Assembly (NCBI GenBank): GCA_946548085.1 | Contig: CAMNPN010000001.1 | Coordinates: forward strand, 5,901 to 69,900 | Direction of reading: 5' to 3' | Length of the DNA: 64,000 nt | Origin: an uncultured Prevotella sp. | Lineage (GTDB): Bacteria > Bacteroidota > Bacteroidia > Bacteroidales > Bacteroidaceae | Shown: positions 10,351 to 32,667 of the stretch, piece by piece | How positions within the stretch are numbered: position 1 is the first letter of the stretch | How the letters are laid out: every line of letters begins with the position of its first letter | The notes under the pieces: generated by a model | Seen by the model: the letters and a program-made list of their open reading frames with translations, nothing else | Databases searched by the model: none | What the model was told of the DNA's origin: nothing | Translations under genes and position numbers: made by a program

Positions 10351-10379
10351 CAAAAACAGAGAACATGATTTCGAAATGA

Positions 10380-10410: not shown

Positions 10411-10439
10411 TTCAAATTATAGTTGGTACTGCTATTCTT

Positions 10440-10976: not shown

Positions 10977-11065
10977 AATTCTAATGTTTAAATTGTTACT
11001 AATTTGTTGTTCTTTTGCCTCTTTATACCCAAAAAGTTCAAAAGGTAACCACTAAAACAAAAAAA

Positions 11066-11524: not shown

Positions 11525-11653
11525 AATCTACAAATTTTAAATAACTCCGCAAAGTTACGTCGATTTGGGCCTCAATCCAAGAAAAAACACAATAACAACC
11601 TTGTGAAATATATAATATGTGGTAAAAACATTCTCGCATTCAATATTTTTTTG

Positions 11654-11661
11654 TATCTTTG
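11654..11661 (+). promoter_or_regulatory. -7 promoter box TATCTTTG of the CHAT-AbiH-CHAT operon
   Basis: Exact TAnnTTTG match 27 nt upstream of the ATG at 11689. It overlaps the TTG start used by the ORF track at 11659. Confidence 0.6.
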
Positions 11662-11688
11662 CCCCAAGTGGAACTAAAAATTGAATAT

Positions 11689-14600: not shown

Positions 14601-14913
14601 TTTCCTTAATCTTGATCTTGTTGTGTTATCTGCATGTCAAACAGCCTTAGGCGATGTTGATTCAGAAGGGGTATATGGCCTTCAAAGAGGTTTTAAGAAA
14701 GCTGGCGCAAAAAGCATTCTGATGAGTTTGGATAACGTTGATGATGAAGCAACTCGAATACTTATGGTGGAGTTTTATCGCAATCTTATGAGTGGAAAGA
14801 CAAAGCATCAATCCCTCAAAGATGCCCAGAAGTATCTTCGTCAGGTTGAGAATGGGAAATATGACAAGCCTGAGTACTGGGCCTCGTTTATTATGTTGGA
14901 TGGTCTAAATTGA
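11689..14913 (+). CDS. Exported TPR-repeat CHAT-domain (caspase-fold) protease, long form
   Basis: 1074 aa from the ATG. Has signal peptide MRRLISVLLCAVCHIVAMA and long TPR-like helical repeats. The C-terminal CHAT domain carries His (NALHISTHG) and Cys (LVVLSACQTALG), and the conserved tail ends YWASFIMLDGLN. Confidence 0.85.
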   Translation: MRRLISVLLCAVCHIVAMAHVIENPIFDMTHSPNFRVNKIIISPDTTYLFCTCFISGTWVNISKSTYIEDIESMNRYNIIKSEGLPFGPDKIEVIGDSLINAVLYFPRITGSKVNFIEDENSYAFNIYGININESYKSTYTDRDIDEFRELAVKEDTSGNWDASIDYSLKQLEASDYVYGKRSFPSAWSMYNLTMEYAQLENQEFAARKMIEWGEKAIDILNNVSAYNLRLDSINLDVLARAYGNTSTAFTQLGQSDSASYYMDKSLDIRRNLGKVNGLDYEEYLMHMARNSFFEEKYPQAYLYAKESSDIYEKKYNENQLFYGCLYLNTLSYLCNFAEKIGKYEESINYGNKVLALLNSNVCPDKKSQEILYASTCTGLACAYSQIAQNDKSIEILESFLDTKQEYGRMSIRMLLAEQLLNCRKDTTKVIQEYKSILKTLEDSISVGKYNYPDYSEILHKLAIVYMKKDIDSTIHYFDKYIEVQKKWNGEESIAYGNSLFEYIQWLSPIIILKKSQEIEKVQSYLYQSANIIKRHFNNSIPFLSKRDRKNYWQHYKFLFTEWIPIINRILKTDISYSMAYDAALFYKGMLLSSELEFKNVLLSSEDKTLKELYESYSHNLALIENLYSTNSNTSLVDSLKSVISSQEYLLSQKVSRSYREFKGTNFSWQDVRGKLSDKDVAIEIVSYKTLVDTITYYDAYILKKGISAPILIPLFEENQLKNYVSNGKVDYMGISSLLWANEDMKEVLKGKKNIYFSTSGLLNQIGIEYLPISDEKYIYDIYNLYRLSSTRELCMMDDIHNIVCAYIYGGLDYNASVENDGNGNIINDSKVGVSVIRSLKQRGGFDYLAGSKDEILKVSQELQNNNIDCTVYTAEKGTEESIKKLSGSIVNALHISTHGICISIDNDSVFQKNNLPVLTPDENKDIDEEEMSLSRSFLVMSGGNLLIRRDSIPEGKDDGLLTALEISHLDFLNLDLVVLSACQTALGDVDSEGVYGLQRGFKKAGAKSILMSLDNVDDEATRILMVEFYRNLMSGKTKHQSLKDAQKYLRQVENGKYDKPEYWASFIMLDGLN

Positions 14914-14921
14914 AAGAGGCA

Positions 14922-15887
14922 ATGGCAAAGAATATATATTATATAGGGAATGGCTTCGACCTACATCACCTCATACAGAGCAGCTATAAGAACTACGCAG
15001 ATTGGTTAATGTGCTTTGACTATGGTTTATATTTAAAGGTCAATATGGTATATGGTGCTTTGGGCAGAGAAGATGAATGGTGGGGGGATTTTGAGAACCA
15101 TATTGGAGATTTGGATGTTGAAGCCTATTCTGCTTGGGTATATAGAAACTATGGCCCTGATTTTGGAAGTGATAGTTTTCGCGAGGCCGATCGTTATACT
15201 GCAGAAATGAAAGCAGAGGAGGAACTGAATGATCTGTATTATAAAATTAAACACTCGTTTTACAAATGGGTTCAGCAACTCCATTTAGCAAATGTATTAA
15301 GAAAGGTAGTATTAGATATAAGTGATTCTTATTTCATTTGCTTTAATTATACAGATACCCTGAGGAGACTTTATAAAATCCCCCAGGATAAGATTTGTTA
15401 TATACATGGTAATGCAAGGAAGGGAGATGAATTAGTTCTAGGCCATGGTAAAACAAAGGATCAGTTAATCGAACCTACGTTGATGCCACCTAACTTAACA
15501 GAAGAGCAGCAGCAAGAATGGATTGATGAGAATATAACGGATGACTCATTTCATAGGACTGTAGACGCTACTATAGATGCTGTTAGTAATCAAAGGAAGG
15601 AAGTGGAAAGAATAATATTTCATAATGATGAGGCATGGAATCAAATGACTCATGCACAAAATTTTTACATATACGGTCTTTCCTTCTCCTCAATAGATAC
15701 ACCTTATATAACCAAGGCTCTTTCTATGATGGATAAGAAAAACCTCTCCATTGTAGTAAATTATTATAATCAGAAAGACATAGAGAAAATAAAGGAATAC
15801 TTTCATCAGTTAGAGTTTCCTGAAGAGAAAATAACTATAGTACAATTGAAGGATCTTTTGGTGTACAAACACTTGTATAATCATTAA
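14922..15887 (+). CDS. AbiH-like (abortive infection AbiH family) protein
   Basis: 321 aa. N-terminal IYYIGNGFDLHHLIQSSYKNYADWL and the internal FNYTDTLRRLY...YIHG...LVLGHG blocks match my memory of the AbiH family. No signal peptide. The ATG is 8 nt after the upstream stop. Confidence 0.75.
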   Translation: MAKNIYYIGNGFDLHHLIQSSYKNYADWLMCFDYGLYLKVNMVYGALGREDEWWGDFENHIGDLDVEAYSAWVYRNYGPDFGSDSFREADRYTAEMKAEEELNDLYYKIKHSFYKWVQQLHLANVLRKVVLDISDSYFICFNYTDTLRRLYKIPQDKICYIHGNARKGDELVLGHGKTKDQLIEPTLMPPNLTEEQQQEWIDENITDDSFHRTVDATIDAVSNQRKEVERIIFHNDEAWNQMTHAQNFYIYGLSFSSIDTPYITKALSMMDKKNLSIVVNYYNQKDIEKIKEYFHQLEFPEEKITIVQLKDLLVYKHLYNH

Positions 15888-15894
15888 TAATGAT

Positions 15895-17559
15895 ATGAAA
15901 CGGCTGCTGTGGATATTATTAACTATAGGATTATTTGTTCATAAGGCAAATGGTCAGAAAAGTGAAGTTAGTATTGACAGAGCCATGTCTCTTTCAAGGA
16001 TGGCGGATTTCTATTATACTGCCCATAATTATGAGAAGGCAATAGAGCAAGAAAAGAAAGCACTTGACATGAAGAGTGTACTCTATGGTATACATAGTTT
16101 GGAATATGCAACGTCGGCATTCAATCTCGCCAAGTATTATTATGATCGAGGGATGGAGGGTGAAATTGAATGCAATCCATCAGACTTTATCTACGCAACA
16201 GAGTATGCGAAGAAGTCTATGGCCATTATAAAGGATACGGTCCTTTTTGAAATGAAAGGTTTGGATTATAATTCAAGGTATCAGTTGTGGCAGAACGTAA
16301 ATACTATTTTTGACAGCACCTTTCCGAGCTATGTGGCGAAGAATCCCAATGATTCTATTCTCTCTGATCTTTACAATATCATACTATTTTCAAAAGGAAT
16401 AACCTGGAGAAGAGACGGAGGCATAAATACAATGTGCTGGAAAGAAATACAGAACGCACTTGGTGAGAATGATATCGCTATCGAATTTATATCACCAGTA
16501 GTGCCATCTAATGATAATATGGTGTTCTATGCGTTGACGCTAAAAAAGGGATATAGATGTCCTAAGATGACAAGGCTTTTTGATATCTTTCAGTTTAAAG
16601 ATTCATTAAAATCTTGTAGTTCAAAAGTCGAAAAAGGCCAAAAGATCGGAAATATGGTTTGGAATCCTCTTAATAATGAACTCATTGGAATAGAGAATGT
16701 CTATTTCTCTGCAACGCATGTGCTGAATAATATGCCTATTGAGTATATGCCAATAACTGACACGGAAACCTACAGTGACAGATATTGCATGATAAGGGTT
16801 TCGTCTACTCAAGAAATTGCAAATAATAAAAAACGTAATCATTTTAACAAAGCTATCCTATTCGGAGGTTTGCAATATGAGGCTATAGAGGCGAAAGGTG
16901 AAGATAGAATGGAAAGAAGTGGATTTGAACCTTTACCAAATACAGGAGAAGAGGTCGCTGAGATTGCGAATGTATTTGAGAAAAGACATATCGACTACAA
17001 AGTTTATTCTGGTGATGAAGGGACGGAAGAATTATTTAAGTCTCTTTCCGGCAGTTCCGTTGATATCCTTCATTTAGCAACTCATGGTAAGTATATAGTC
17101 AATAACGACGTTGGGGTGTATCATAATGGTGATGAAGCTTTGACGAATTCGATACTTGTTTTTTCTGGGGTAAATAAACGATCTACATCTAGTTTTGAAC
17201 AAGATGATGGTATAGTAACAGCTCTCGATATATCGCAGATGGTCTTTGGTAATCTTGATCTCATTTCATTATCAGCCTGTGAGTCTGCTTTGGGTGAATA
17301 TGGGATAGATGACAGTATCATGGGTTTACAGCGTGGCTTTAAAATTGCTGGAGCTAATACCATTTTGATGAGTATAGACAAAGTTGATGATGAAGCAACA
17401 AGAATACTGATGGTAGAGTTCTATCGCAATCTTATGAGTGGAAAGACAAAGCATCAATCCCTCAAGGATGCCCAGAAGCATCTTCGCAAGGTTGAGAATG
17501 GGAAATATGACAAGCCCGAGTATTGGGCATCTTTTATTATGTTGGATGGGTTGAATTAA
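15895..17559 (+). CDS. Exported TPR-repeat CHAT-domain protease, short form
   Basis: 554 aa with signal peptide MKRLLWILLTIGLFVHKANG and N-terminal TPR-like repeats. CHAT His (DILHLATHG) and Cys (LISLSACESALG) are present. The last ~60 aa are nearly identical to the 11689-14913 product. Confidence 0.85.
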   Translation: MKRLLWILLTIGLFVHKANGQKSEVSIDRAMSLSRMADFYYTAHNYEKAIEQEKKALDMKSVLYGIHSLEYATSAFNLAKYYYDRGMEGEIECNPSDFIYATEYAKKSMAIIKDTVLFEMKGLDYNSRYQLWQNVNTIFDSTFPSYVAKNPNDSILSDLYNIILFSKGITWRRDGGINTMCWKEIQNALGENDIAIEFISPVVPSNDNMVFYALTLKKGYRCPKMTRLFDIFQFKDSLKSCSSKVEKGQKIGNMVWNPLNNELIGIENVYFSATHVLNNMPIEYMPITDTETYSDRYCMIRVSSTQEIANNKKRNHFNKAILFGGLQYEAIEAKGEDRMERSGFEPLPNTGEEVAEIANVFEKRHIDYKVYSGDEGTEELFKSLSGSSVDILHLATHGKYIVNNDVGVYHNGDEALTNSILVFSGVNKRSTSSFEQDDGIVTALDISQMVFGNLDLISLSACESALGEYGIDDSIMGLQRGFKIAGANTILMSIDKVDDEATRILMVEFYRNLMSGKTKHQSLKDAQKHLRKVENGKYDKPEYWASFIMLDGLN

Positions 17560-17560
17560 T

Positions 17561-17586
17561 ATTGGAGAGGGAATTCCCTCTCCAAT
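17561..17586. terminator. Perfect 26-nt palindrome, bidirectional terminator candidate
   Basis: attggagagggaattccctctccaat starts 2 nt after the CHAT stop. It lies between convergent ORFs and has no long T run. Confidence 0.55.
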
Positions 17587-17590
17587 AACG

Positions 17591-17737
17591 CTACCACACA
17601 TAAGGTCTATCAAGGATTTTTGTGTTTCCGCACTTGGGGCACTTAAACTCTGTTAGTTGACGAACTACACCATTTCGGATTTCTGTTCTTGTCCTCATCT
17701 CGACCATCTGGCTTTTACAAAAGAAACAATTTTCCAT
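17591..17737 (-). CDS. Small zinc-ribbon protein (YgiT/MqsA-N-terminal-like CxxC...CxxC), candidate
   Basis: 48-aa ORF below the track cutoff: MENCFFCKSQMVEMRTRTEIRNGVVRQLTEFKCPKCGNTKILDRPYVW. A TACCTTTG box lies at 17851-17858 (minus strand) upstream. Convergent with the CHAT gene. Confidence 0.4.
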   Translation of the reverse strand: MENCFFCKSQMVEMRTRTEIRNGVVRQLTEFKCPKCGNTKILDRPYVW

Positions 17738-18145
17738 AATTGAATCAATTATTTGTTAATATTATGCGGTTCTCCATGCACCGCGTTATCAAGCTACTAA
17801 CATTGGTTCAAGACTCGAGTATGGAGCAGAAACTGGAGTTTTTCCATGTGCAAAGGTATAAACAATAATTGAGAACGCCAAACAATCTCACCATTTTTTT
17901 TGATAAACTCTCAGAATAGACGCCATTTACGTGTTATTGAACGAATACGGTCATTTGATGAAAATATCACTTTGAAGGCTCTTTCTTCTTGCTGGTTCAT
18001 CTGCTCTTAAGGAACTTCTCTATCTGATTGGTATGTCCTTCCATGTTGTTGCCTTTTCCTCTTGATACTGGGCATTATTTCAAGATAATTGAGTAGAAAG
18101 AGTGCAAACTTGCGTGATAGTTGAGTTTCGTGCTTATTTTTCACA

Positions 18146-18346
18146 GGTGACAAAGGAGCAGAATCTTCATTCTTATCATTATCAGGAGGACCAATAGATA
18201 TACTTCATTTAGCTACTCATGCAAGTATATCAGCAGTAGTATGGGGTTGCAAAGATGCCCAAAAGTATCTTCGTCAGATTGAAGATGGGAAATATGACAA
18301 ACCAGAGTATTGGGCCTCATTTATCATGTTGGATGGATTGAACTAA
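18146..18346 (+). pseudogene. Internally deleted remnant of a third CHAT protease gene
   Basis: The frame reads GDKGAESSFLSLSGGPIDILHLATHAS...KDAQKYLRQIEDGKYDKPEYWASFIMLDGLN*. It retains the His box and the C-terminal tail but lacks the roughly 110-aa segment with the catalytic Cys. It has no start codon; an in-frame TGA lies at 18122-18124. Confidence 0.75.
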
Positions 18347-18348
18347 AA

Positions 18349-18370
18349 GAGGGCGCATTAATGCGCCCTC
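18349..18370. terminator. Perfect 22-nt palindrome after the CHAT remnant
   Basis: gagggcgcattaatgcgccctc sits 3 nt after the remnant stop, in the same position as the 17561-17586 palindrome relative to the LDGLN stop. Confidence 0.5.
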
Positions 18371-18376
18371 GACATG

Positions 18377-18520
18377 TTAGTGGCATAGTATACCGAGCAA
18401 TGACGCTATGATACTCAAAAATGCAGCTATCTGTGTGAGAACATCTGATCTCCTTTTTGAATTGCTGACATTATAGTTATGCCACTCCACGTGTACCTTC
18501 TGAATTAACATTATTATCAT
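18377..18520 (-). CDS. Small tail-anchored hydrophobic peptide, candidate
   Basis: 47-aa ORF MIIMLIQKVHVEWHNYNVSNSKRRSDVLTQIAAFLSIIASLLGILCH with one C-terminal TM helix. A TATCTTTG box lies at 18633-18640 (minus strand) upstream. Confidence 0.3.
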   Translation of the reverse strand: MIIMLIQKVHVEWHNYNVSNSKRRSDVLTQIAAFLSIIASLLGILCH

Positions 18521-18678
18521 AACAATAATTCTTTTTGATACTCCGTGGCTCCGAGGCTCCTGGAGTTGTGGTGAATAAATACTTCACGGCTCTGTGGCTC
18601 TCCAGAAGATGAGCGAGTTTCGTTCACGGCAGCAAAGATACAACAAGATTACTAAACTTCCAAATTTTTTATGGAAAA

Positions 18679-19200
18679 TTATGTAGATTTCTCTGGAGGG
18701 TCAAACAGGAATGAAATGGTCTCGTTGAATTCCTCTATGACCTGAGGCAGATTCGGGTTATCCCTTTTTGATATAATGGCGATGAAATTCATGATTCCGT
18801 CCATCTTGCCCTCAGCAGTTTTCATGATAAATAATTCACGTCTTTCGTAGATGTTAAACCAACGCACGAAGAGTCTGTTTCGGAATGCTTGCTTGCGGTC
18901 GCCTGTCTCTGCCAAATAAAGCATGGTATCGTCACCGTTTACATCAAAGAACTCTTCGATGATGGCAAAAATGGTAAGTCGTAATTTGCTGTCATGAGGT
19001 GAACGCTCATGGTGTCTGTTGGTAATACCAAACTCGTAGGCTCCACTGGGGATAATGGCCTCATTTATTGTGAAGTCGATGTCGAACCTGACACCACTAT
19101 CACTGACAAAGTAGAAATTGTTATGTCTCACAGGATCCTGCATCACCTTATAAGGAGCATGCAGATTGATGTTCTCCAATCTGAGTGTGTTCATAGTCAA
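18679..19200 (-). CDS. Hypothetical protein (173 aa)
   Basis: Clean ORF on the same strand, 26 nt downstream of the 45-aa ORF. I recognise no motif. Confidence 0.6.
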   Translation of the reverse strand: MTMNTLRLENINLHAPYKVMQDPVRHNNFYFVSDSGVRFDIDFTINEAIIPSGAYEFGITNRHHERSPHDSKLRLTIFAIIEEFFDVNGDDTMLYLAETGDRKQAFRNRLFVRWFNIYERRELFIMKTAEGKMDGIMNFIAIISKRDNPNLPQVIEEFNETISFLFDPPEKST

Positions 19201-19226
19201 TAAAGGTTTAAAAGGCTTCTCTGTTT

Positions 19227-19364
19227 TTATGCAAAAAAGCCTTGAAGTTCTAACTCGTCCATTCTCTTCAGATTTTCTTCCATGCGCTCCTTCTTCCTGC
19301 GCATCGTCTCCCTGAATGCGGCTCTCACCTCTTCACGGGTTCTTTTTGTTTTTCTTGTTTCCAT
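19227..19364 (-). CDS. Small basic protein (45 aa), candidate first gene of a two-gene cassette
   Basis: METRKTKRTREEVRAAFRETMRRKKERMEENLKRMDELELQGFFA. A TAACTTTG box at 19400-19407 (minus strand) lies 35 nt upstream of the ATG, which is canonical spacing. Confidence 0.45.
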   Translation of the reverse strand: METRKTKRTREEVRAAFRETMRRKKERMEENLKRMDELELQGFFA

Positions 19365-19458
19365 ATCGATAAAAAGTTAAGATGTTATTAATACGCTGGC
19401 AAAGTTACGGATAAATCCTGAAACTCCCAAATAATTTGAGTAAAAAGTGAGATAGAGT

Positions 19459-20121
19459 TCATTTCCTCAACTTATTAAGTATTTCCAGAGCCTTGACAGC
19501 AATGGGTGTATCAGGATTATCTTCTGCCAATTTCTTTAGAACAGGAATAGCCTTATTTGTCTGATCGTTCTTAATATAGGCAAGGGCCAGATTAATGGCA
19601 ATGTCGTTGGCATAAGCGGAATAGGTGAAGTCTGAGTCCATATTGGAATAAATGGTTTCCAATTCTGCTATGATGGTACTGACGTTGCGCTGTTCCTTTA
19701 TATTATTAAATAAGGTGTAGAGGTGGGCGACGGTAACAGAATCTAAATCACCGCGTGAATAATCATCCATGCTATACTCAGAATAATAGGGTGATACAAG
19801 TGCGGAGAGTTCATTAAATCGCTTGTCTTTCTGATAGCCGAAGAAGATGGCAATGACGGCAGCGATAGAGCAGGCCCATGCAACAAGCGTGCGTAGTCTT
19901 TCTTTGGTGTTGTTGCTGATAAGTGTCTTTTCCTTAGCAGCCTCCTGTGAGCGTATGCTTTTAATCAGAGATACGGTAGCCAACACTTGGGCACGCAGTT
20001 CTGGGTCTGCCTTGATCTCTTGCTTAAAGGCTTGTTCTTCAACCTCTGTCATGGCACCACGTATGAAAGCATCGATTCTTTCTTCGATGGCCTGCTGTTG
20101 TATATCGTTGTACTTATCCAT
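19459..20121 (-). CDS. Membrane anti-sigma-like protein with extracytoplasmic TPR-like domain
   Basis: 220 aa. N-terminal FIRGAMTEVEEQAFKQEIKADPEL is an anti-sigma-type helix, followed by a single TM helix (LVAWACSIAAVIAIFFGY) and a C-terminal TPR-like tail. The ATG overlaps the sigma gene stop by 8 nt. Confidence 0.6.
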   Translation of the reverse strand: MDKYNDIQQQAIEERIDAFIRGAMTEVEEQAFKQEIKADPELRAQVLATVSLIKSIRSQEAAKEKTLISNNTKERLRTLVAWACSIAAVIAIFFGYQKDKRFNELSALVSPYYSEYSMDDYSRGDLDSVTVAHLYTLFNNIKEQRNVSTIIAELETIYSNMDSDFTYSAYANDIAINLALAYIKNDQTNKAIPVLKKLAEDNPDTPIAVKALEILNKLRK

Positions 20122-20698
20122 AGATCTTATTCTTTAGTTCGTTATACTTGTCGCGGAACTTCTTCACGCACTTATATTTCTGGGCCTTAACGGAGTTGGC
20201 ATCAGAGAAGTTGAACATATCTGCAATGGTTGATGTCGAGAAGTCATCCCAGTAGTAACTATGAAGAATATTCTTGCAGGTGTCTGTCATCGAGGCGATG
20301 ATATTGTTCACCAGCAGTTCCATACGGGTTTTCCTTTCTTCTTCCTCCGCATCTATACAAGCGCCATAGAGTTCTGCTATCTTGTCATCACGTACAAAGT
20401 CGGAGTTGGTGAGTCTTCTATCGTCAAAGAAAGGTTTCGTCTTGCTGTCCTTTCCCAGGAACTTTAGGGTCTGGTTAATGCAGACTCTCATGAAATAGGT
20501 TCCTAACGAACTTGTCAGAGTAGACAACTTCCCGTCACGGACATTCAGGAAAAGAGCCATTGATGACTCCTGGAAGATATCATCAAGGTCATCATCTGAG
20601 ACATAGAACTGTTTCCGTAGATATGACAATACCCTTCCTCTCTCATCAGAAAGGAAGCGGTTCAAATCCTGGTTCTGCAATGATATCTCCTTTGCCAT
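20114..20698 (-). CDS. ECF-type sigma-70 family RNA polymerase sigma factor
   Basis: 194 aa. Region 2-like DDLDDIFQESSMALFLNV...YFMRVCINQ and region 4-like CKNILHSYYWDDFSTSTIADMFNFSDANSVKAQKYKCVKKFR. Confidence 0.8.
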   Translation of the reverse strand: MAKEISLQNQDLNRFLSDERGRVLSYLRKQFYVSDDDLDDIFQESSMALFLNVRDGKLSTLTSSLGTYFMRVCINQTLKFLGKDSKTKPFFDDRRLTNSDFVRDDKIAELYGACIDAEEEERKTRMELLVNNIIASMTDTCKNILHSYYWDDFSTSTIADMFNFSDANSVKAQKYKCVKKFRDKYNELKNKIYG

Positions 20699-20699
20699 A

Positions 20700-21569
20700 T
20701 TAGAAACTCGTTTCTGTTACCATGTTCTGATTATTGGGCCAATGGCCATTCTTCATAATGGAAGCCTTGACTCCATTCAAGAATTCCTCGGCATTGGTGG
20801 ATAAGGGTCTTGTTTGCAATGCCTGAGCGATGTTGTAAGACAGCGGGCCATAGCGCTTATCTGCCACCATTATCTCCATATTCACCTGATCCGGGCGACA
20901 GGCTTCAAGATACAGGACATGAGACTGTTTGGCTGATGGCTCAATCTTGTAATGGGACTTCTTGTCAGCAGAAGGCTTGAACACCTTGTTATGATAGGTA
21001 AAGCCGACCTTGGTACCTCTGACTGTTTCGTCATTGGCGCGTGAGGATGTGCCGGCATGGCAGGCATCAATCACCACATAGAGGAATCCCGTAGGACCTA
21101 TCTTGTCGCGTAACTTTTTGACGTATGTGTTCAGCTGATCATCCAGAAGATGCTTTTTCCCTTCATAGACGCCTTTCTTATAGAGTTTATAGGCATCGAT
21201 GGGGATGATGGCTTCATCCCAGCCATCTTCTTCATCACCATTCAAGTCTTCTACAGGCTGGCCGTGTGCTGAGAAGTGGAGATAGACGATATCACCTTTT
21301 TTCGTCTTGTCTGCGAACTGAGATAGTTGGGTGATAATATTTTCGAAAGTGGCCTGTTCATCCAAGAGAGAGGTGATAGCAAATCCTTGCTTTTTCAGGA
21401 TGGGAGTTAAAAGATTCACGTCTTCAGTACCATTGATATTATTCCACTGGTAGCCAGTCAATGCCGTGTCATAATGAGAGATGCCCACCATGAAAGCCCT
21501 TTTCCGTTGTGGAAATGCAACAGACGAAATACAGCATAACAGACTTAATATCAGCAGTTTCCAATTCAT
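20700..21569 (-). CDS. Exported caspase-family (peptidase C14) protease
   Basis: 289 aa from the ATG at 21569, with signal peptide MNWKLLILSLLCCISSVAF. The catalytic dyad blocks are YLHFSAHGQ and VVIDACHAGTS. Its stop codon is 1 nt from the sigma ATG. Confidence 0.85.
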   Translation of the reverse strand: MNWKLLILSLLCCISSVAFPQRKRAFMVGISHYDTALTGYQWNNINGTEDVNLLTPILKKQGFAITSLLDEQATFENIITQLSQFADKTKKGDIVYLHFSAHGQPVEDLNGDEEDGWDEAIIPIDAYKLYKKGVYEGKKHLLDDQLNTYVKKLRDKIGPTGFLYVVIDACHAGTSSRANDETVRGTKVGFTYHNKVFKPSADKKSHYKIEPSAKQSHVLYLEACRPDQVNMEIMVADKRYGPLSYNIAQALQTRPLSTNAEEFLNGVKASIMKNGHWPNNQNMVTETSF

Positions 21570-21587
21570 TGCCCAAAATATTTTCGG

Positions 21588-21595
21588 CAAATATA
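21588..21595 (-). promoter_or_regulatory. -7 promoter box TATATTTG of the caspase-sigma-anti-sigma operon
   Basis: Plus-strand caaatata is the reverse complement of TATATTTG, 18 nt upstream of the ATG at 21569. The track start at 21590 is the TTG inside this box. Confidence 0.6.
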
Positions 21596-21690
21596 CAAAA
21601 ATATTTCGAAATAGCGGTTACCTTTTTGTTTTTTTCAGTATAAAGAGGCAAATAAACAACAAATTAGTAACAATTTAAACATCAAACAAA

Positions 21691-22230
21691 ATGAAAAAAG
21701 TATTTTATCACATCACGAGAGTGTTTTCTAAGTGCTGGTTTATCATCCTCCTTGCTTGCACGATTTCGCCAATCGTAGCCTTAGGTGTCCTCATCCTCTT
21801 TACCATTATCTCAATGGTATTTTTCAAGGATCCTGATGATGCCAAGAACCCTGATGATTATTTCACAGATGAGGAAATGAAGAGATTGGAGTCCGGCGAG
21901 GACATGAATGACGAGGAGTTTCTGACGCTGGTGGCTAAATGTCAGACCTTCAACTGCCCGAAGAAAGTCGATCCTGTAACGACCTGGACGAGTTCTGAAT
22001 TGACCAAGGACGCATACATCTATAACTATGAGATTAACGACAAAAAACACATGTATCGTCTCTTGGATATGAATGACCTGAAGAATCAGATCCTGTCAAG
22101 GATTGACAAACAAAACGATAAGATTCAGCGCATTATTGCTACTAATAGAAATCTTGTGTTCCGTTACAGGAATTATCAGAAGAACACCATAGAAGATGTT
22201 GTTCTGACAACAAACGAGCTTAGGAGTTAA
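21691..22230 (+). CDS. Hypothetical membrane-anchored protein (179 aa)
   Basis: N-terminal hydrophobic stretch WFIILLACTISPIVALGVLILFTIISMVFF followed by a soluble domain. It is divergent from the caspase operon. Confidence 0.6.
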   Translation: MKKVFYHITRVFSKCWFIILLACTISPIVALGVLILFTIISMVFFKDPDDAKNPDDYFTDEEMKRLESGEDMNDEEFLTLVAKCQTFNCPKKVDPVTTWTSSELTKDAYIYNYEINDKKHMYRLLDMNDLKNQILSRIDKQNDKIQRIIATNRNLVFRYRNYQKNTIEDVVLTTNELRS

Positions 22231-22269
22231 GATTAGAAACATGTATAACCCTATAAAAACAGAAATAAT

Positions 22270-22836
22270 ATGGCACTATTAAGTTTGTTCGGCGCAAAGC
22301 CAAAGGAAAAGGTAGAGATGGTTCCTGTCATTCCAGAGAATTCTACCGAGCAAGATGCTGAGGACGTAAAGAACTCAGAGGAAGACAACGAAGAAGAGAA
22401 AAAGCATCTGATCACCATCACCTGGGGAACGGGAATGCCCATAGACGTCATTTTCAACTACATTCATAAGAACTTCGAGGAAGAAGGATTCCAGGATGCG
22501 TTGGTTAATTCAGACATTACTTATCGCGATGCCAAAGAGAAAATTATCCGTAACGACCTGGAGATGCTTTTCAAACGTATTATCCTCTGCTACAAGAAGA
22601 ATATCCGTGAGATAGATGTCCAGATTAACAATGCCCGTCAGGCATACGCCCTTTCTGCTGCATCAAGCCTGGAAGCCCGGCGTACCACCTATGAAGAGCA
22701 TCTTACAGAGATTGATGAGATGCGTGAACAGTTTGAGTCAGACGATCCTAAAATGATGACCATGATAGAGTCATATCGCAGGGGATTTCTCAAAGGAATC
22801 ACAGCAGTATCACTTAAGTTTATTAATCACGAATAA
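22270..22836 (+). CDS. Hypothetical protein (188 aa), acidic N-terminus plus helical C-terminus
   Basis: Clean ORF 39 nt after the previous gene. No recognised motif. Confidence 0.6.
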   Translation: MALLSLFGAKPKEKVEMVPVIPENSTEQDAEDVKNSEEDNEEEKKHLITITWGTGMPIDVIFNYIHKNFEEEGFQDALVNSDITYRDAKEKIIRNDLEMLFKRIILCYKKNIREIDVQINNARQAYALSAASSLEARRTTYEEHLTEIDEMREQFESDDPKMMTMIESYRRGFLKGITAVSLKFINHE

Positions 22837-22848
22837 GAATTATCAGTT

Positions 22849-23838
22849 ATGAAAACTTTAAATAATATTGGATGTGCCCTGATTGGATGGGACAAGAATA
22901 TCTTGAAAGAATGTGGTGAGGCAAGTCACCGCCAGTTTAGAAAACTGATCTCTGCCATTTGTATCATGATGATACTCTGGGGAACCATCGGCTACTGTTT
23001 TGCCGACAGATACATAAATATTGAATCATTAGTATTGAAGATTTGTATTGCCTTGATGTTCATGCTCATTGTCTTATGCGTAGAACGAGTGATCATTCTA
23101 ACGGTTGGCAAAGCGCGCCTTATGACTGTGATGAGAGTTATGCTTGCTTTATGTATGGCTTTTCTGGGAGCTTGTATCTTTGACCAAATTATCTTCCAAA
23201 ATGATATTCAGCAGACAATACACGATCGCCGTGAGGACGTAATTCAGGAAACTACAGCAAAACGTCTGATGGTCTTTAATAGTGATATACAAAGGATTAC
23301 TCATGATTTGGATTCGTTGAGCAAATCTACAATTACTTTGGGTGAAGAATTGGCGAAACATCCTACTATAAAGAGCGTTAACGTATCAACAATAGAACAG
23401 GCCATAGGAGTTGATGAGAATGGTAATCCAAAGAAAGTGAGAAATCGTTCTACAGAGATTGTGAATATTCCTAATCCTCTGACTGGACAGCTAAATGCAA
23501 ATAACGAACAGATTCAGTTATATCAAAATCAGTTAGAGCAGCTTCGTCAGGACAAAAAAGAGATTGCTGGAAAGGTGACAGATGAAATACACTCTCGTCC
23601 TGTTGGATTTATTGAGGAATTGGAAGCGACTCTGAAGGTTGTGTCGAACAGCTGGATATCATTGGTATTTTATATAGTTCTCTTCTGCTTCCTGACATTT
23701 CTGGAACTGTTCGTTCTAACAATCAAAATGGGCGAAAGTAAGTGTGACTATGATTTGATAGTGGAGAACCAGTTGAAACTGAAAAAGAACCTCATGGATC
23801 AGACTGCACAGAGTATGATGGTGAATATAGCAGTTTAG
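22849..23838 (+). CDS. Membrane protein with long central coiled coil (DUF4407-like architecture)
   Basis: 329 aa with three N-terminal TM helices, a heptad-rich segment of about 140 aa (LNANNEQIQLYQNQLEQLRQDKKEIAGK) and a C-terminal TM helix (WISLVFYIVLFCFLTFLELFVLTI). The family name is from memory and uncertain. Confidence 0.6.
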   Translation: MKTLNNIGCALIGWDKNILKECGEASHRQFRKLISAICIMMILWGTIGYCFADRYINIESLVLKICIALMFMLIVLCVERVIILTVGKARLMTVMRVMLALCMAFLGACIFDQIIFQNDIQQTIHDRREDVIQETTAKRLMVFNSDIQRITHDLDSLSKSTITLGEELAKHPTIKSVNVSTIEQAIGVDENGNPKKVRNRSTEIVNIPNPLTGQLNANNEQIQLYQNQLEQLRQDKKEIAGKVTDEIHSRPVGFIEELEATLKVVSNSWISLVFYIVLFCFLTFLELFVLTIKMGESKCDYDLIVENQLKLKKNLMDQTAQSMMVNIAV

Positions 23839-23864
23839 TATTAACACTTTAAATATAAACGTTT

Positions 23865-24131
23865 ATGGAAACAAGAGACGACTTATTTAGTGATGTCATC
23901 GAAGAGATGTTTGAAGAACTACCCATTGAAGTTAAAATGGATATGGATGAGGAAGATTTGGAAGATCTAGTCGATGAAGATAATGATTGGGAAGAATCTG
24001 ATAATTACGAGTGTGGTGGTTATCTGTGGACAGAGGAAGATTCCTGGGATGCACTTACGGATGGAATGTATGGTGAAATGCCCAATAGCCCTTGGGAATA
24101 TGATGCGATGATGGATGCTATGGGATTCTAA
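23865..24131 (+). CDS. Extremely acidic small protein (88 aa)
   Basis: By my count 33 Asp/Glu against 2 Lys/Arg. It has aromatic-acidic motifs (DNDWEESDNYE, SPWEYDAMMD). Confidence 0.6.
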   Translation: METRDDLFSDVIEEMFEELPIEVKMDMDEEDLEDLVDEDNDWEESDNYECGGYLWTEEDSWDALTDGMYGEMPNSPWEYDAMMDAMGF

Positions 24132-24144
24132 TAAAGTTTAGACT

Positions 24145-24717
24145 ATGGATAAGGAATTAAAAGTAATGATCTCAAAAGAAATGGAGCAGTTCCATTGCTC
24201 CATTCTTTTAGACGAAGTGAAAGAAAAAGTACGTAAGTTGAAAGCGTATGGTGTGGAGGAAGCAGATATTGTAGCTGCCATGAATGAGGAAGAACTATTC
24301 CCTCAGTTGGTGGTGACAGAAGATTACAAGGTTGTTTTGGCAGGAGAAAAGTCCATAGAGGTAGAGATGGAGCCCCTGATAAAGGCTATATATTTGTTGT
24401 TCTTGTCCCATCCAGAGGGGATTGTGCTCAAATGTCTTCCAGATTATCGTAAAGAACTAACTAGTATCTATCTGCTTCTACGTCCATATGGACTTACTGA
24501 CAGAGTAGAAAATAGTATTGAAAGCGTGACCAATCCTATGCAGAACTCAATCAATGAGAAGTGTGCCAGGATTCGGAAACTGTTCTCATCGCTGCTCCCC
24601 AAGAGTGTTGCCAAATATTATGCCATTTCTGGTAAGCGTGGCGAAGCCAAGAAGATAGATCTTGTTCGGGCCAATGTCGTCTGGAAATGCAAATTGCCTA
24701 ATTCGCAAGGCTTGTGA
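24145..24717 (+). CDS. Uncharacterised protein, paralog of the FtsZ-coupled gene at 28117-28701
   Basis: 190 aa. Shares the blocks VVTEDYKVVL, IYLLFLSHPEGI, NSINEKCARIRKLF and VVWK with the 28117-28701 product. Confidence 0.65.
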   Translation: MDKELKVMISKEMEQFHCSILLDEVKEKVRKLKAYGVEEADIVAAMNEEELFPQLVVTEDYKVVLAGEKSIEVEMEPLIKAIYLLFLSHPEGIVLKCLPDYRKELTSIYLLLRPYGLTDRVENSIESVTNPMQNSINEKCARIRKLFSSLLPKSVAKYYAISGKRGEAKKIDLVRANVVWKCKLPNSQGL

Positions 24718-24751
24718 TGCAAAATAGTTTGGCGGCAGAGATATTAGTTAG

Positions 24752-24759
24752 TATCTTTG
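24752..24759 (+). promoter_or_regulatory. -7 promoter box TATCTTTG ahead of the 142-aa gene and dnaB
   Basis: Exact TAnnTTTG match 23 nt upstream of the ATG at 24783. It lies inside the longer track ORF that starts at 24714. Confidence 0.55.
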
Positions 24760-24782
24760 CCACCTATTTAATTTTATTTCTT

Positions 24783-25211
24783 ATGACAGACTACGAGTAC
24801 ATTATTACACAATTGAAGAAGTGTCATTTCTCTGGATGGGATGACAAAGTGATGAGGGATTGTATTGACAGGTTGCCTAACTTGTCGCGTCAGGAATTGA
24901 CAGCGCTCTATTTAGGTAAATGGGTGAAGGAGTATGCTGTGTTTAAGGAGGCTATCTTCAACATTATGTTTGCTGATAAGATAGGACTGCGAGAAGAGCG
25001 TATCAGGAATCTTGATACGGAGGCGCTGATTGCGGAGTTTAAGGATAAGAAAGGTGGAAATGTGTCACTTTGCAGGGAAGAACTGAAGGCTCGCTATGAG
25101 GCTGGGCGTGATGTGGATCTGATAGCTGAGGCTTTTACTGCTTCGAACAAGAAAGACCAGCAGTGGATTATCAAACAGGAGAAGAAATCAAAGGATGGGG
25201 ACAAGAAGTGA
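24783..25211 (+). CDS. Hypothetical protein (142 aa) overlapping the dnaB start
   Basis: MTDYEYIITQLKK... start chosen because of the promoter box. The 3' end overlaps the dnaB ATG by 17 nt. Confidence 0.55.
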   Translation: MTDYEYIITQLKKCHFSGWDDKVMRDCIDRLPNLSRQELTALYLGKWVKEYAVFKEAIFNIMFADKIGLREERIRNLDTEALIAEFKDKKGGNVSLCREELKARYEAGRDVDLIAEAFTASNKKDQQWIIKQEKKSKDGDKK

Positions 25212-26706
25212 TAGGAGACAGTCGTCGCAGCAGTCATTGGAACTTGCTTACGGTCATGTGATGCCTCAGGCTCCTGAGGTGGAGAAGGCTGTGCTGGGAG
25301 CGCTGATGATAGACAAGGATGCCTATCTGGAGGTGTGCGACCTGTTGAGGCCAGAGAGTTTCTATGAGCCAAGAAACCAGATGGTGTATGAGGCTATTAT
25401 GAAACTCAGCATAGAGGAGAGTCCCGTGGATGTGCTGACGGTGACTGACAAGTTGGGCAAGATGGGGAAACTCGAGGATGTCGGAGGGCCTGGATATATA
25501 GCAGAACTCAGTTCAAGGGTCGCTTCTTCGGCCAATATCGAGTATCATGCCAATGTGGTGGCGGAGAAATATCTGTCGCGCCAGATGATTCATTATGTGG
25601 GAGAGGTAGGAAAGAAGACTTTTGACGAGACATATCCCATCAAGGATGTGGTTAATGATGCACAGGCCAAACTCTTTGAACTGTCTCAGAAGAATATGAA
25701 GAAGGACTATTCCGTGCTTGCTCCTATTCTGGAGAGGGCTGTCAAGTCTGTTCAGGATGCCCACTCTAATACAGGAGGTGTGACGGGTATTCCCACCGGT
25801 TTTTACAAACTGGACGACATCACTTGCGGATGGCAAAAGTCTGATCTTGTGATTATTGCCGGAAGACCTGCTATGGGAAAGACTGCCTTTGCCCTTTCAT
25901 TGGCGAAGAACATCGCTGCGGATCAGAAGATTCCGATGGCATTCTTCTCGTTGGAGATGTCAAGCGAACAACTGGCAAACCGTCTGATGGCTAATGCCTT
26001 TGAGATAGACGGTAAGAAACTCATGAGCGGACAGTTGGATCGTGAAGATTGGAACAGGCTTGATAAGGGTATGAATAATCTCGTAGACGCACCTTTGTAT
26101 ATTGACGATACGGAAGGACTTTCGGTGATGGAACTGAGGACTAAGGCTCGTCGATTGGTAAATGAACACCATGTGCAGTTGATCATGGTGGATTACCTTC
26201 AACTGATGACTGCCAGTGGCATGAGATATAACAGTCGCCAAGAGGAGGTGTCGCTGATTTCCCGATCACTGAAAGGTCTCGCTAAGGAATTGGATATCCC
26301 TGTTCTGGCATTAAGTCAGTTGAACAGAGGGGTAGAGGGAAGAGATGGGGCAGAGGGGAAACGCCCCATGCTTTCTGACCTTCGAGAGTCTGGTGCCATT
26401 GAGCAGGATGCGGATATGGTGGTGTTCTTGCATCGCCCAGAGTATTATGGTATTATGATGAGTGATGACGGCACGAAAGACTATCGAGGGATGGCGGAAG
26501 TGATAATAGCCAAGCATCGTAAAGGTGCAGTTGGTATCAAGTTGTTGAAGTTCAGAGGGGAATACACGCGGTTTGAGAATCCAGAGGATAATATGATTGG
26601 CAATGGTGTTCCCAGCGATGGTGGTGAAATCGTTGGCTCGAAGATCAATGGTGAGAATAGCATGCCCTTCCCGCCACCAGACTCATTCAACTCGTTCAAT
26701 ATTTAA
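25195..26706 (+). CDS. dnaB: Replicative DNA helicase
   Basis: 503 aa. Has the N-terminal domain EVEKAVLGALMIDKDAY, Walker A GRPAMGKTAF, and the SLEMS, DYLQLM and RESGAIEQDAD blocks. Confidence 0.9.
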   Translation: MGTRSDRRQSSQQSLELAYGHVMPQAPEVEKAVLGALMIDKDAYLEVCDLLRPESFYEPRNQMVYEAIMKLSIEESPVDVLTVTDKLGKMGKLEDVGGPGYIAELSSRVASSANIEYHANVVAEKYLSRQMIHYVGEVGKKTFDETYPIKDVVNDAQAKLFELSQKNMKKDYSVLAPILERAVKSVQDAHSNTGGVTGIPTGFYKLDDITCGWQKSDLVIIAGRPAMGKTAFALSLAKNIAADQKIPMAFFSLEMSSEQLANRLMANAFEIDGKKLMSGQLDREDWNRLDKGMNNLVDAPLYIDDTEGLSVMELRTKARRLVNEHHVQLIMVDYLQLMTASGMRYNSRQEEVSLISRSLKGLAKELDIPVLALSQLNRGVEGRDGAEGKRPMLSDLRESGAIEQDADMVVFLHRPEYYGIMMSDDGTKDYRGMAEVIIAKHRKGAVGIKLLKFRGEYTRFENPEDNMIGNGVPSDGGEIVGSKINGENSMPFPPPDSFNSFNI

Positions 26707-26768
26707 AAATAGAAGTGGGAATTTCACCGCAAGCCTTGTGAAGATTTGGGTATGTGGGAAAAGTTTAC

Positions 26769-26776
26769 TAACTTTG
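26769..26776 (+). promoter_or_regulatory. -7 promoter box TAACTTTG ahead of the ftsZ homolog
   Basis: Exact TAnnTTTG match 24 nt upstream of the ATG at 26801. Confidence 0.55.
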
Positions 26777-26800
26777 CAAACGATTTAATGCAAAGTGAAT

Positions 26801-28120
26801 ATGGGCGAGGAAATAATAGAGTTTGACGGCATCAGAGATACGATGCAAGGCATCATCAAGGTGATCGGCGTTGGTGGTGGTGGCTGTAATGCCGTGCGGA
26901 ATATGTATAATGAACAAGTGACGGGCGTCACCTTTGCAGCCTGCAATACGGACAGCCAGTCGCTGAAGGGATCGCCAGTGCCAGTGAAAGTGCTGATGGG
27001 CGAGGGCCTTGGTGCTGGCGGTGACCCTGAGATTGGCAGGTCGGAGGCAGAGAAAAGCATTGACACGCTGAGGGAGATACTGAGCGATGGCACGAAGATG
27101 GTGTTTATCACCGCCAGCATGGGGGGCGGCACGGGTACTGGCTCTGCGCCCGTGGTGGCGCAGGTGGCTCAGGAACTGGGGCTGCTGACGGTGGGGGTGG
27201 TGACCATACCGTTCTATTTCGAACGTAAGCCCAAAATTATCCAGGCTTTGAAGGGTGTTGACGAGATGAGGAAGTATGTGGATGCGATGCTGATCATCAA
27301 TAACGAACGGCTCTGTGACGTGTATTCTGACTCGGAGATCTCGCTGAAAGAGGCGTTCGGACGTGCAGACAATATCCTGAAGGATGCCGTGAAGGGCATC
27401 TCCGAACTGATCACCGTGCATAGCGAAGGCAGTATCAACCTCGACTTCCGTGATGTCGAGGCTACGATGAAAGACGGTGGTGGGGCCATCATGGCGATGG
27501 GACGTGCCAGCGGCGAGCATCGTGTGGAGAAGGCGATCATCGATGCCCTGAACTCACCCTTGCTCTATGGCAACGATATCGGCAAGGCGAAGCGAATCCT
27601 GTTTAATATCTATGCCAGCGATGAGCATCCCATCTTCGTCAGGGAGATGCAGGAGATAGACGATTTCTTCGATCAGTTGGATCCCAATATCAGCGTCATC
27701 TGGGGTACGTCTACTGACGACTCCTTGGGCGAAGATGCCAAGGTGACAATCCTGGCAACAGGCTTGGAGGACGATATGTGCAAAGAAACAGGCCAGGATG
27801 TGCATCGCAATGCTGATGACTATTATGAGGATCTGATACCTAAACTCTATAAGCCTGCCAAGAAGAAGGTGGCAGAGGTCATCACCCAGGAACTGCCATT
27901 CGTTGTGGAACCTGCTGCAGAGCCAGAACCTGCCGTAGTCAGCGAGCCTGTTGACAGTCATGAGGCTACTGTTGAACCTGTGTCTGCGCCGTCTGTAACT
28001 CCTGTGCCCGAGGGGACAAAGGAGCGTGATGAGGATGAACAGGAGGAGCCTGAAGAGTCTACGATGGTGAGCAAGTGGAAGGGCTGGTTGAACAACTTGG
28101 TGAAAGACGTGACAGAATGA
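26801..28120 (+). CDS. ftsZ: FtsZ-family tubulin-like GTPase
   Basis: Contains IKVIGVGGGGCNAV, GLGAGGDPEIG, the tubulin signature SMGGGTGTGSAP and the T7-like NLDFRDV. It has an acidic Pro-rich linker and an amphipathic C-terminal peptide KWKGWLNNLVKDV. There is no ftsA or ftsQ next to it. Confidence 0.9.
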   Translation: MGEEIIEFDGIRDTMQGIIKVIGVGGGGCNAVRNMYNEQVTGVTFAACNTDSQSLKGSPVPVKVLMGEGLGAGGDPEIGRSEAEKSIDTLREILSDGTKMVFITASMGGGTGTGSAPVVAQVAQELGLLTVGVVTIPFYFERKPKIIQALKGVDEMRKYVDAMLIINNERLCDVYSDSEISLKEAFGRADNILKDAVKGISELITVHSEGSINLDFRDVEATMKDGGGAIMAMGRASGEHRVEKAIIDALNSPLLYGNDIGKAKRILFNIYASDEHPIFVREMQEIDDFFDQLDPNISVIWGTSTDDSLGEDAKVTILATGLEDDMCKETGQDVHRNADDYYEDLIPKLYKPAKKKVAEVITQELPFVVEPAAEPEPAVVSEPVDSHEATVEPVSAPSVTPVPEGTKERDEDEQEEPEESTMVSKWKGWLNNLVKDVTE

Positions 28121-28701
28121 GCGAGTTGATCCTTTCACCAGAAGAGGCGGCCCAGGAAGTGAAGCGGCTGACGATGCAACTGCAACAGTCGGGTAGGCAG
28201 GACCTGTTGTTGCATGCACTTGGTGTACCTCTTTTGGAGGAACTCAGAATAGAGGCTGCCAAGGGACGGTTGAGCCGACTGGTGATAACTGAAGACTACC
28301 GATTCGTATTGGAAGACTATCACAAGGAGGTGGAACTGCAGCCTGTGCATAAGGCCGTCTATCTGCTGTTCCTGGCCCATCCGGAGGGTATCGAGTTCAA
28401 GCGCCTGGCGGAGTATCGTGATGAATTGTTGGGCTATTACATGTCTACTGCAAAGATGATGGACAAGGAGAAGGTGATAGAGAGTGTAGACCATCTGACA
28501 GACCCGCTCGACAATGCCATCAACGAGAAATGTTCACGTATCAAGAAGGTGTTTCTTGAACTGATGGATGAGTACTCGGCAAGTTACTATATCATCAGCA
28601 GTCATACGCAGAAACATGTCGTTGGCTCCAGTCGTATCTGGTACGAACGGCTGAAGGTGGTAAGGCTGCCAAGGGAACTGGTGGTGTGGAAAAGAGGGTA
28701 G
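28117..28701 (+). CDS. Uncharacterised protein translationally coupled to the ftsZ homolog (paralog of 24145-24717)
   Basis: 194 aa. Its ATG overlaps the ftsZ TGA (ATGA at 28117-28120). Blocks: VITEDYRFVL, VYLLFLAHPEGI, NAINEKCSRIKKVF, VVWK. Confidence 0.7.
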   Translation: MSELILSPEEAAQEVKRLTMQLQQSGRQDLLLHALGVPLLEELRIEAAKGRLSRLVITEDYRFVLEDYHKEVELQPVHKAVYLLFLAHPEGIEFKRLAEYRDELLGYYMSTAKMMDKEKVIESVDHLTDPLDNAINEKCSRIKKVFLELMDEYSASYYIISSHTQKHVVGSSRIWYERLKVVRLPRELVVWKRG

Positions 28702-32290: not shown

Positions 32291-32364
32291 TGGAGCGGAA
32301 TACGGGAATCGAACCCGCCTCCCAGGCTTGGGAAGCCCGTGCACTACCGATGTGCTAATTCCGC
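32291..32364 (-). tRNA. tRNA-Gly (anticodon CCC)
   Basis: Hand-folded cloverleaf: acceptor gcggaat/attccgc, anticodon loop ttCCCaa, T-loop ttcgatt, encoded CCA. Confidence 0.85.
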
Positions 32365-32392
32365 ATGAAAATAAGTTTTCTGATTACTTTTG

Positions 32393-32465
<73 letters not shown>

Positions 32466-32478
32466 AACCTTTTATTTG

Positions 32479-32551
32479 TACACCCGCAGGGGTTCGAACC
32501 CTGGACACCCTGATTAAGAGTCAGGTGCTCTACCAACTGAGCTACGGGTGC
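32479..32551 (-). tRNA. tRNA-Lys (anticodon CTT), copy 1
   Basis: Acceptor gcacccg/cgggtgt (G1-U72 wobble in my fold), anticodon stem cctga/tcagg with loop ctCTTaa, T-loop ttcgaac. Confidence 0.85.
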
Positions 32552-32594
32552 ATCCGATTTTTCAAAAAGAAAGGAGGGTCGCTTGCCTCCTCTG

Positions 32595-32667
32595 TACACC
32601 CGCAGGGGTTCGAACCCTGGACACCCTGATTAAGAGTCAGGTGCTCTACCAACTGAGCTACGGGTGC
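32595..32667 (-). tRNA. tRNA-Lys (anticodon CTT), copy 2
   Basis: Identical in sequence to 32479-32551. Tandem duplicate with a 43-nt spacer. Confidence 0.85.

Follow-up and report, generated by a model that had tools for sequence, protein, structure and literature searches.

In a 64-kb stretch of DNA from an uncultured Prevotella sp. (contig CAMNPN010000001.1; the whole stretch is referred to here as the window), two small genes with similar products are found, one at the end of an island of low guanine-cytosine (GC) content and the other overlapping the end of an ftsZ gene. The locus raises the question of what a gene carried by an island has in common with the partner of an FtsZ protein. 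The first-pass annotation, made from the sequence alone, had placed both products in an uncharacterised family likely to act with FtsZ, and had speculated that the island copy could mimic, redirect or inhibit the division ring in the way that phage-encoded FtsZ inhibitors do. We use the working names Y1 for the island copy and Y2 for the ftsZ-linked copy. Our analysis points to a different answer, in which the partner Y2 is more likely to be a DNA-binding protein than a ring inhibitor, and its main new result is a palindromic operator common to both paralogs.

Y1 and Y2 are paralogs by sequence

The open reading frames (ORFs) of Y1 (24145..24717, plus strand, 190 amino acids (aa)) and Y2 (28117..28701, plus strand, 194 aa) have the coordinates and lengths that had been assigned to them, and the two products have a domain in common. 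Where their identity had been put at roughly 40% by eye, pairwise alignment with BLASTP gave 67 identities over 165 residues (41%, E=1e-32), and each of the four motif blocks that had been listed was found within this alignment. The likeness is far above chance and, judged by sequence, the two proteins are real paralogs. The ATGA overlap of the Y2 start on the ftsZ stop was also borne out: the junction reads ...GTG ACA GAA TGA, with the Y2 ATG at 28117. The longest Y2 ORF opens at a GTG at 28075, and the orthologs favour the ATG at 28117. Y1 is the final gene of a low-GC island module, orf188-DUF4407-orf88-Y1.

Y2 is the constant neighbour of an ftsZ gene

A genome scan from Y2 against species-representative genomes returned 80 loci, nearly all from rumen Prevotella. 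An FtsZ ortholog was found beside the Y2 ortholog on the same strand in 79 of the 80, the sole exception being at a contig end, and overall Y2 orthologs adjoin FtsZ in every informative locus (~85). The association with ftsZ that had been suggested for the family as a whole therefore holds for the branch to which Y2 belongs and fails for the Y1-like branch (both described below), which is not itself adjacent to ftsZ.

Three gene layouts were observed. Among loci with both ORFs complete, 66 have ftsZ followed by Y2, mostly with a 4-nucleotide (nt) overlap, and 15 have Y2 followed by ftsZ with gaps of -17 to 44 nt. The divergent layout was represented by 3 entries from one lineage, with further divergent loci among distant lineages and among look-ups starting from FtsZ. 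In the distant lineages (Y2 51-56% identical, FtsZ ~60%) the pair is co-directional or divergently transcribed, and the look-ups from FtsZ found a Y2 homolog as the divergent neighbour in 4/4.

Several loci with Y2 in front (L020, L031, L037, L043, L048, L051 and L072) have a short Y2-ftsZ spacer made of purine-rich tandem repeats, which vary by species (e.g. GAGTTTAGAGTTTAG, GGAGATAAAGGGAGATAAAG and AGTAAGGAGTAAGTAGTAAG). In one lineage (L227:345-3753) the Y2/FtsZ pair lies beside a WYL-WCX regulator, RtcB and RlaP, a cluster of the RNA-repair type.

A palindrome with fixed promoter geometry

Alignment of the regions upstream of ftsZ, which are otherwise diverged, identified the sequence CGCAAG-S-CTTGCG, and the 13-bp palindrome has the general form C[G/A]CAAG-S-CTTG[C/T]G. 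The window contains two sites in total at no more than one mismatch, both of them CGCAAG/CACAAG hybrids. The first copy (CGCAAGGCTTGTG, 24704..24716) overlaps the last codons of Y1 and its stop codon (TGA 24715-24717). It is followed by the plus-strand promoter elements of orf142-dnaB (24728..24759), which consist of TTTG at 24728-24731 and TATCTTTG at 24752-24759 with the -7 box 35 nt past the palindrome, and then by the orf142 ATG; orf142 runs into dnaB. The second copy (CGCAAGCCTTGTG, 26728..26740) is located 73 nt upstream of the ftsZ ATG, ahead of the plus-strand promoter elements of the ftsZ-Y2 operon (26745..26776; TTTG at 26745-26748 and TAACTTTG at 26769-26776), with the -7 box 28 nt past the palindrome.

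The same arrangement recurs in other genomes. In loci with ftsZ in front, the palindrome is mostly at -66 to -84 from the ftsZ ATG, with a few at -95 to -111; in loci with Y2 in front it is upstream of Y2, and in divergent loci it is intergenic. It precedes, in other words, whichever gene of the pair stands first. The Bacteroidetes -7 box TAnnTTTG is found downstream on the gene strand at 115 of 122 unique sites, in two spacing classes: one of 28 nt, containing the window ftsZ site and the FtsZ-paralog promoters of L227, and one of 35-36 nt, containing the orf142 site and most sites of the metagenome scan described below. The centre of the palindrome is ~35 or ~42 nt upstream of the -7 box, a placement compatible with activation as well as with repression.

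The half-sites differ with the branch of the Y family. Upstream of FtsZ/Y2, CGCAAG was counted 125 times and CACAAG 30 times, and after Y1-like genes CACAAG was counted 42 times and CGCAAG 4 times. In 23 unique cases a palindrome of the CACAAG type is found at -10 to +21 nt relative to the end of a Y1-like gene. A metagenome scan was made with the 15-mer TTCACAAGSCTTGTG, which represents the CACAAG variant only and was not selected for Y genes, and it gave 80 readable loci from many environments. A Y-domain gene was present in 14 of these, with the site no more than 17 nt from its 3' end in 11 of the 14. The genes downstream of the scanned sites are diverse, with products that include orf142-like, TerB-like and Sel1 proteins, membrane proteins, an ATPase of DnaB/KaiC-like type and a protein of 2881 aa.

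The possibility that the palindrome is an RNA element or a terminator was rejected, as an Rfam search over 23.8-29 kb gave nothing relevant and the predicted folding is weak (-2.7 and -3.7 kcal/mol). Two loci carry paired palindromes, 23 bp apart in L025 (93-128) and 289 bp apart in L139 (3627-3930), which would bear on a centromere-like reading of the site.

The FtsZ beside Y2 is most likely a second copy

The ftsZ gene of the window (26801..28120, plus strand, 439 aa) has its true start at the ATG 26801 and not at the GTG 26795. Its product matches Pfam Tubulin and FtsZ_C, passes TIGR00065 with 328.1 bits (cut-off 295.2) and is 40% identical to E. coli FtsZ. The GTP-binding motif SMGGGTGTG and the T7 loop NLDFRDV are both intact. 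Its Tubulin_2 score is 15 bits against a cut-off of 27, hence below the threshold for the TubZ family. The C-terminal amphipathic peptide, encoded at 28058..28117 on the plus strand (STMVSKWKGWLNNLVKDVTE), is conserved, and its consensus T-I-L-x-K-W-K-x-W-L-N-N-L-M-K-x-V-T-E is unlike the D-I-P-x-F-L-R of E. coli.

From the TIGR00065 pass and the conserved tail, this protein was first assumed to be the housekeeping FtsZ, an assumption that was then rejected. With E. coli proteins as tblastn queries, none of ftsA, ftsQ, murC, murG or ftsW was found in a total of 1.0 Mb of flanking sequence from ~90 loci or in the 64-kb window, placing the gene outside the dcw cluster. A separate FtsZ is found beside FtsA in other Prevotella: the locus tags of FtsZ (_00019), FtsA (_00020) and FtsQ (_00021) run consecutively in P. 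brevis (PMC10542786 supplement), and FtsQ, FtsZ and FtsA have adjacent accessions in P. intermedia (PMC10897501 supplement). In P. bryantii B14 two proteins are named FtsZ, D8DUA3 and D8DTR9. The former adjoins FtsA (D8DUA2) and was quantified in most conditions; the latter turned up in very few samples and adjoins the uncharacterised protein D8DTR8 (PMC8508442 supplement). Few bacteria have two ftsZ genes, the extra copy being outside the dcw cluster (family review, PMC9871819). Because dcw neighbours are absent and a separate FtsZ stands beside FtsA in Prevotella proteomes, the window FtsZ is most likely a paralog, that is, a second, non-housekeeping FtsZ. Protein searches from FtsZ returned close relatives only and did not separate the paralogs, and a literature search found no dedicated paper on a Prevotella or Bacteroidetes FtsZ paralog or on a Bacteroidales FtsZ partner.

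The isolate assembly of Xylanibacter ruminicola KHT3 contains two FtsZ-Y2 loci on two contigs (L041 and L044). The two FtsZ proteins are 84% identical, with a near-identical GTPase core and a differing linker, and the double locus could be either a true duplication or a mixed assembly. In a lineage with an FtsZ paralog of 540-600 aa (L104:9850-10000, L105 and L226), tandem copies of CAAGCTTATAAAA / CAGGCTTATAAGA are present between the promoter and the ftsZ start, and their number differs among contigs.

Branches and predicted fold of the Y family

The Y family is large, with no fewer than 7992 clusters at 90% identity and 2495 representatives at 50%. It had been called uncharacterised, in agreement with our searches, as no family was assigned to Y1, Y2 or the product of orf142 in the Pfam, NCBIfam or PADLOC libraries. 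It divides into two branches. Members of the Y2 branch are at least 50% identical to Y2 and mostly short (~110-250 aa among the representatives, some of them fragments). The Y1-like branch is much larger, and its proteins are mostly 330-500 aa with the Y domain at the C-terminus, preceded by hydrophobic segments (by eye) or by DUF1810, DUF6804 or TPR domains. Y1 shares 50-63% identity with the C-terminal domain of Y1-like members and 41% with Y2, and is therefore a short member of the large branch. Just 3 of the 2.9 million viral contigs searched contained the family, and a phage origin was rejected on this count.

Two independent, confident AlphaFold models were obtained, one of full-length Y2 and one of the Y1 domain, with predicted local distance difference test scores of 90 and 95, respectively. 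In Foldseek, the best Protein Data Bank (PDB) matches of the Y2 model were the DNA-binding domains of ArlR, OmpR, RstA and KdpE, and those of the Y1 model were AdeR (probability 0.97, template modelling (TM) score 0.67), OmpR, ToxR and CovR. The top OmpR-family matches had target-normalised TM-scores of 0.62-0.67, but E-values of 0.14-1. Both models show an N-terminal beta-sheet, a three-helix core with a recognition helix and a C-terminal beta-hairpin wing, with an extra helix inserted ahead of the recognition helix. Conservation across the family is highest in the predicted recognition-helix motif, N-x-I-N-E-K-C-x-R-I. A comparison of the family by hhalign with ten OmpR-family domains of the annotated E. 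coli K-12 genome gave P=0.0099, a score of 20 and a probability of 4%, in a register that aligned helix 1 and the recognition helix as expected (NAINEKCSRIKKVF against RTVDTHIKTLRAKL). A weak PADLOC match was to the C-terminal third of a CARF-family profile, and a sequence-based profile search of the PDB gave low-complexity matches only, to the acidic linker of long proteins. These lines of evidence are concordant, not conclusive, and they lend weak support to a predicted OmpR/PhoB-type winged helix as the fold of the Y domain, which in Y1 would follow an N-terminal helical region.

Genomic surroundings of the locus

Downstream of the first palindrome, orf142 (24783..25211, plus strand) is given in the ORF list as 165 aa from a GTG at 24714, and its orthologs start with MTDYEY. 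It is tightly coupled to the gene for a DnaB-family replicative helicase (25195..26706, plus strand, 503 aa), which it overlaps or abuts in the window and in other loci, with a gap of 3 nt in L025. It has no family match besides a faint PADLOC match resembling a helix-turn-helix or sigma region 4, and it could encode a helicase-associated factor. The helicase gene is at this position in some strains only, and is missing from it in L082.

The low-GC island extends over 8750-24131 (GC 0.30-0.43 against ~0.5-0.55 elsewhere), with Y1 at its end. It contains genes for a VapE-like protein, two CHAT-TPR proteins flanking AbiH, DUF6169, a sigma-like/TPR pair, a caspase-like Peptidase_C14 protein, DUF4407 and an 88-aa acidic protein, and has the appearance of a defence or mobile island. 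The neighbourhood of Y1 showed no phage structural genes. Strains with the same Y2 (L081-L084) differ at the island position, upstream of the DnaB/FtsZ position, where the alternative cargo is DarT with SLFN/AlbA_2 (a Schlafen-like ATPase) and DUF6939, or HSP70 with Pkinase-AAA, or RhuM with a 1601-aa UvrD/DEAD helicase and Fic. A constant core follows downstream in these strains (rubrerythrin, beta-helix, cdd, glucosaminidase, LolA and FtsK). In many genomes a Y1-like gene occupies this same position and has its own operator downstream.

In another locus (L001:178-3080), the block orf188-DUF4407-orf88-Y1-orf142 is 98-99% identical to window 22270-25211, with identity falling to 89-91% for the adjacent DnaB, FtsZ and Y2. 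This mosaic of identities suggests a recent horizontal exchange of the island block. Approximately 3.6 kb downstream of Y2, four tandem tRNA genes (Gly-CCC, Thr-CGT and two Lys-CTT) are located on the minus strand of the window at 32291-32667.

Regulator, partner or inhibitor

Our best explanation, which we hold at about an even chance, is that Y1 and Y2 represent two branches of a Bacteroidales family of sequence-specific DNA-binding proteins acting at the palindrome, and that Y2 regulates the operon of the ftsZ paralog. Each Y protein would have a short, helical N-terminal part ahead of a divergent OmpR/PhoB-type winged helix, and would bind the 13-bp palindrome as a dimer, just upstream of the -33/-7 promoter elements. 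Y2 would be a dedicated regulator, and probably an autoregulator, of the two-gene operon of Y2 and the second FtsZ. Y1-like proteins would control the gene that follows them, by way of the CACAAG-variant palindrome and the promoter past their stop codon, and in the window the promoter after Y1 would drive orf142-dnaB under the control of Y1. Binding of the palindrome by the Y proteins, like the direction of regulation, is what we infer here. Cross-talk of Y1 at the promoter of the ftsZ paralog is a conjecture, conceivable because the recognition-helix motif and the half-sites are shared and both window sites are hybrids.

Transcriptional control of ftsZ by OmpR/PhoB-family winged-helix regulators is known from CtrA in Caulobacter and WalR/YycF in Bacillus subtilis. 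The Y proteins resemble these regulators in their predicted fold and in the proposed promoter-proximal control of an ftsZ gene. They differ in having no receiver domain and no Trans_reg_C match, in the extra helix before the recognition helix, in a site that is a palindrome and not a direct repeat, and in that Y2 shares an operon with a paralogous FtsZ. Sequence-specific DNA binders that act on FtsZ are also known from nucleoid occlusion, namely SlmA (TetR fold), which binds the C-terminal peptide of FtsZ, and Noc (ParB fold). The likeness to Y2 is in the proposed action of a DNA-binding protein on FtsZ; the folds are different, and neither SlmA nor Noc is encoded with ftsZ. Extra ftsZ copies outside the dcw cluster have been described in a few bacteria (PMC9871819), including paralogs in Hyphomicrobiales (bioRxiv 10.1101/2025.09.29.679267), and the Prevotella paralog is similar in lying away from ftsA and ftsQ in a conserved locus of its own. 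It is different in its full length, its linker and conserved tail, its dedicated partner gene and its conserved operator.

Several observations weigh against the regulatory explanation. The link between the Y proteins and the palindrome is one of co-location only, and orf142 or a global regulator could be the binder. Most loci were picked for containing Y2, and the counts of palindrome sites are not phylogenetically independent. Palindromes are unusual for OmpR-family proteins, the usual targets of which are direct repeats. No match to Trans_reg_C (PF00486) was obtained for Y1 or Y2 at E<=0.1, nor was it among the families listed for 70 family members at E<=5, and by the criterion of hidden Markov models the Y family is outside Trans_reg_C; the Foldseek E-values of 0.14-1 and the hhalign probability of 4% are not significant when either is taken alone. 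The orthology of P. bryantii D8DTR9 to the window FtsZ is itself only inferred. Furthermore, the translational coupling of the pair in both gene orders is explained by a protein-protein partnership no less well than by a simple relationship of regulator and target.

Such a partnership could operate through protein alone, with Y2 modulating the assembly, bundling or membrane attachment of the FtsZ paralog without binding DNA, and with the palindrome serving an unrelated regulator. The strictness of the linkage, its translational coupling and the statistical weakness of the winged-helix assignment are all in keeping with this. It leaves unexplained, however, why the palindrome is found 13-17 nt past Y1-like genes with no FtsZ nearby and why the half-site variants track the branch of the Y protein, and it faces the high conservation of the predicted recognition-helix motif; we consider a protein-only role decidedly unlikely. 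A partnership that includes DNA appears unlikely too, though less so. Here Y2 would bind both the palindrome and the C-terminal peptide of the FtsZ paralog, coupling filaments to specific DNA sites, whether to position or segregate DNA or to keep a nucleoid-linked check on division, and would also autoregulate as TubR does with TubZ and tubC, which would add to the regulatory role and not replace it. The layout is that of the type III partition systems of Bacillus plasmids and Clostridium phages (PMC6009700, PMC5322520, PMC7762940), with the gene for a tubulin/FtsZ-superfamily GTPase beside one for a small, here predicted, winged-helix protein and a DNA site upstream of the operon. TubR is both centromere binder and regulator, and the C-terminal tail of TubZ is functionally important (PMC6009700, PMC5322520), which is matched here by the retention of a conserved amphipathic tail unlike the E. 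coli type; the start/stop overlap is conserved, and the very short gaps of the reversed order point to co-production in stoichiometric amounts. On the other hand, the GTPase is a genuine FtsZ and not a TubZ (328 bits for TIGR00065 against 15 for Tubulin_2, cut-off 27), Y2 is not detectably related to TubR, which is absent among the fold matches of both Y models, each promoter has a single palindrome in place of an iteron array, the contexts are chromosomal, and the family is almost absent from viral contigs.

The ring inhibitor proposed at the outset, with Y1 as a protein-level mimic of Y2 that inhibits or redirects the division ring, found no support and is highly improbable. Y1 is indeed a paralog of Y2 and lies in a low-GC island with defence-type genes (AbiH, CHAT and the caspase-like protein). 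However, it is closer to the branch that is not linked to FtsZ than to Y2, the family is essentially absent from viral contigs, Y1-like genes keep their place and their own downstream operator in many genomes, and no similarity of Y1 to known FtsZ-inhibitor families was found in Pfam, NCBIfam or PADLOC. With a predicted DNA-binding winged helix, any effect of Y1 on FtsZ would, on this evidence, pass through the common DNA operator and not through mimicry of the ring.

The regulatory explanation could be extended to a chromosomal module of Prevotella, consisting of a true FtsZ paralog, a winged-helix partner and the palindrome, that acts on DNA or division. Sensor-fused, Y1-like island regulators would use the same operator, and phage attack or membrane stress would thereby reprogramme the FtsZ paralog and orf142-dnaB. 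We regard this extension as unlikely.

Implications

The cell biology of Prevotella, a genus dominant in the rumen and human gut, has barely been studied. Three features of the locus appear to be undescribed: a widespread second FtsZ with a constant partner and a conserved operator; a large predicted winged-helix family (~2,500 clusters at 50% identity) that has no Pfam or NCBIfam model; and a regulatory palindrome common to a cytoskeletal gene, a helicase operon and the cargo genes of variable islands. The annotation of the window is also corrected, as its FtsZ should not be taken as the housekeeping division gene. If defence-island regulators do share the operator of the FtsZ paralog, this would provide a link between defence islands and the machinery of replication and division.

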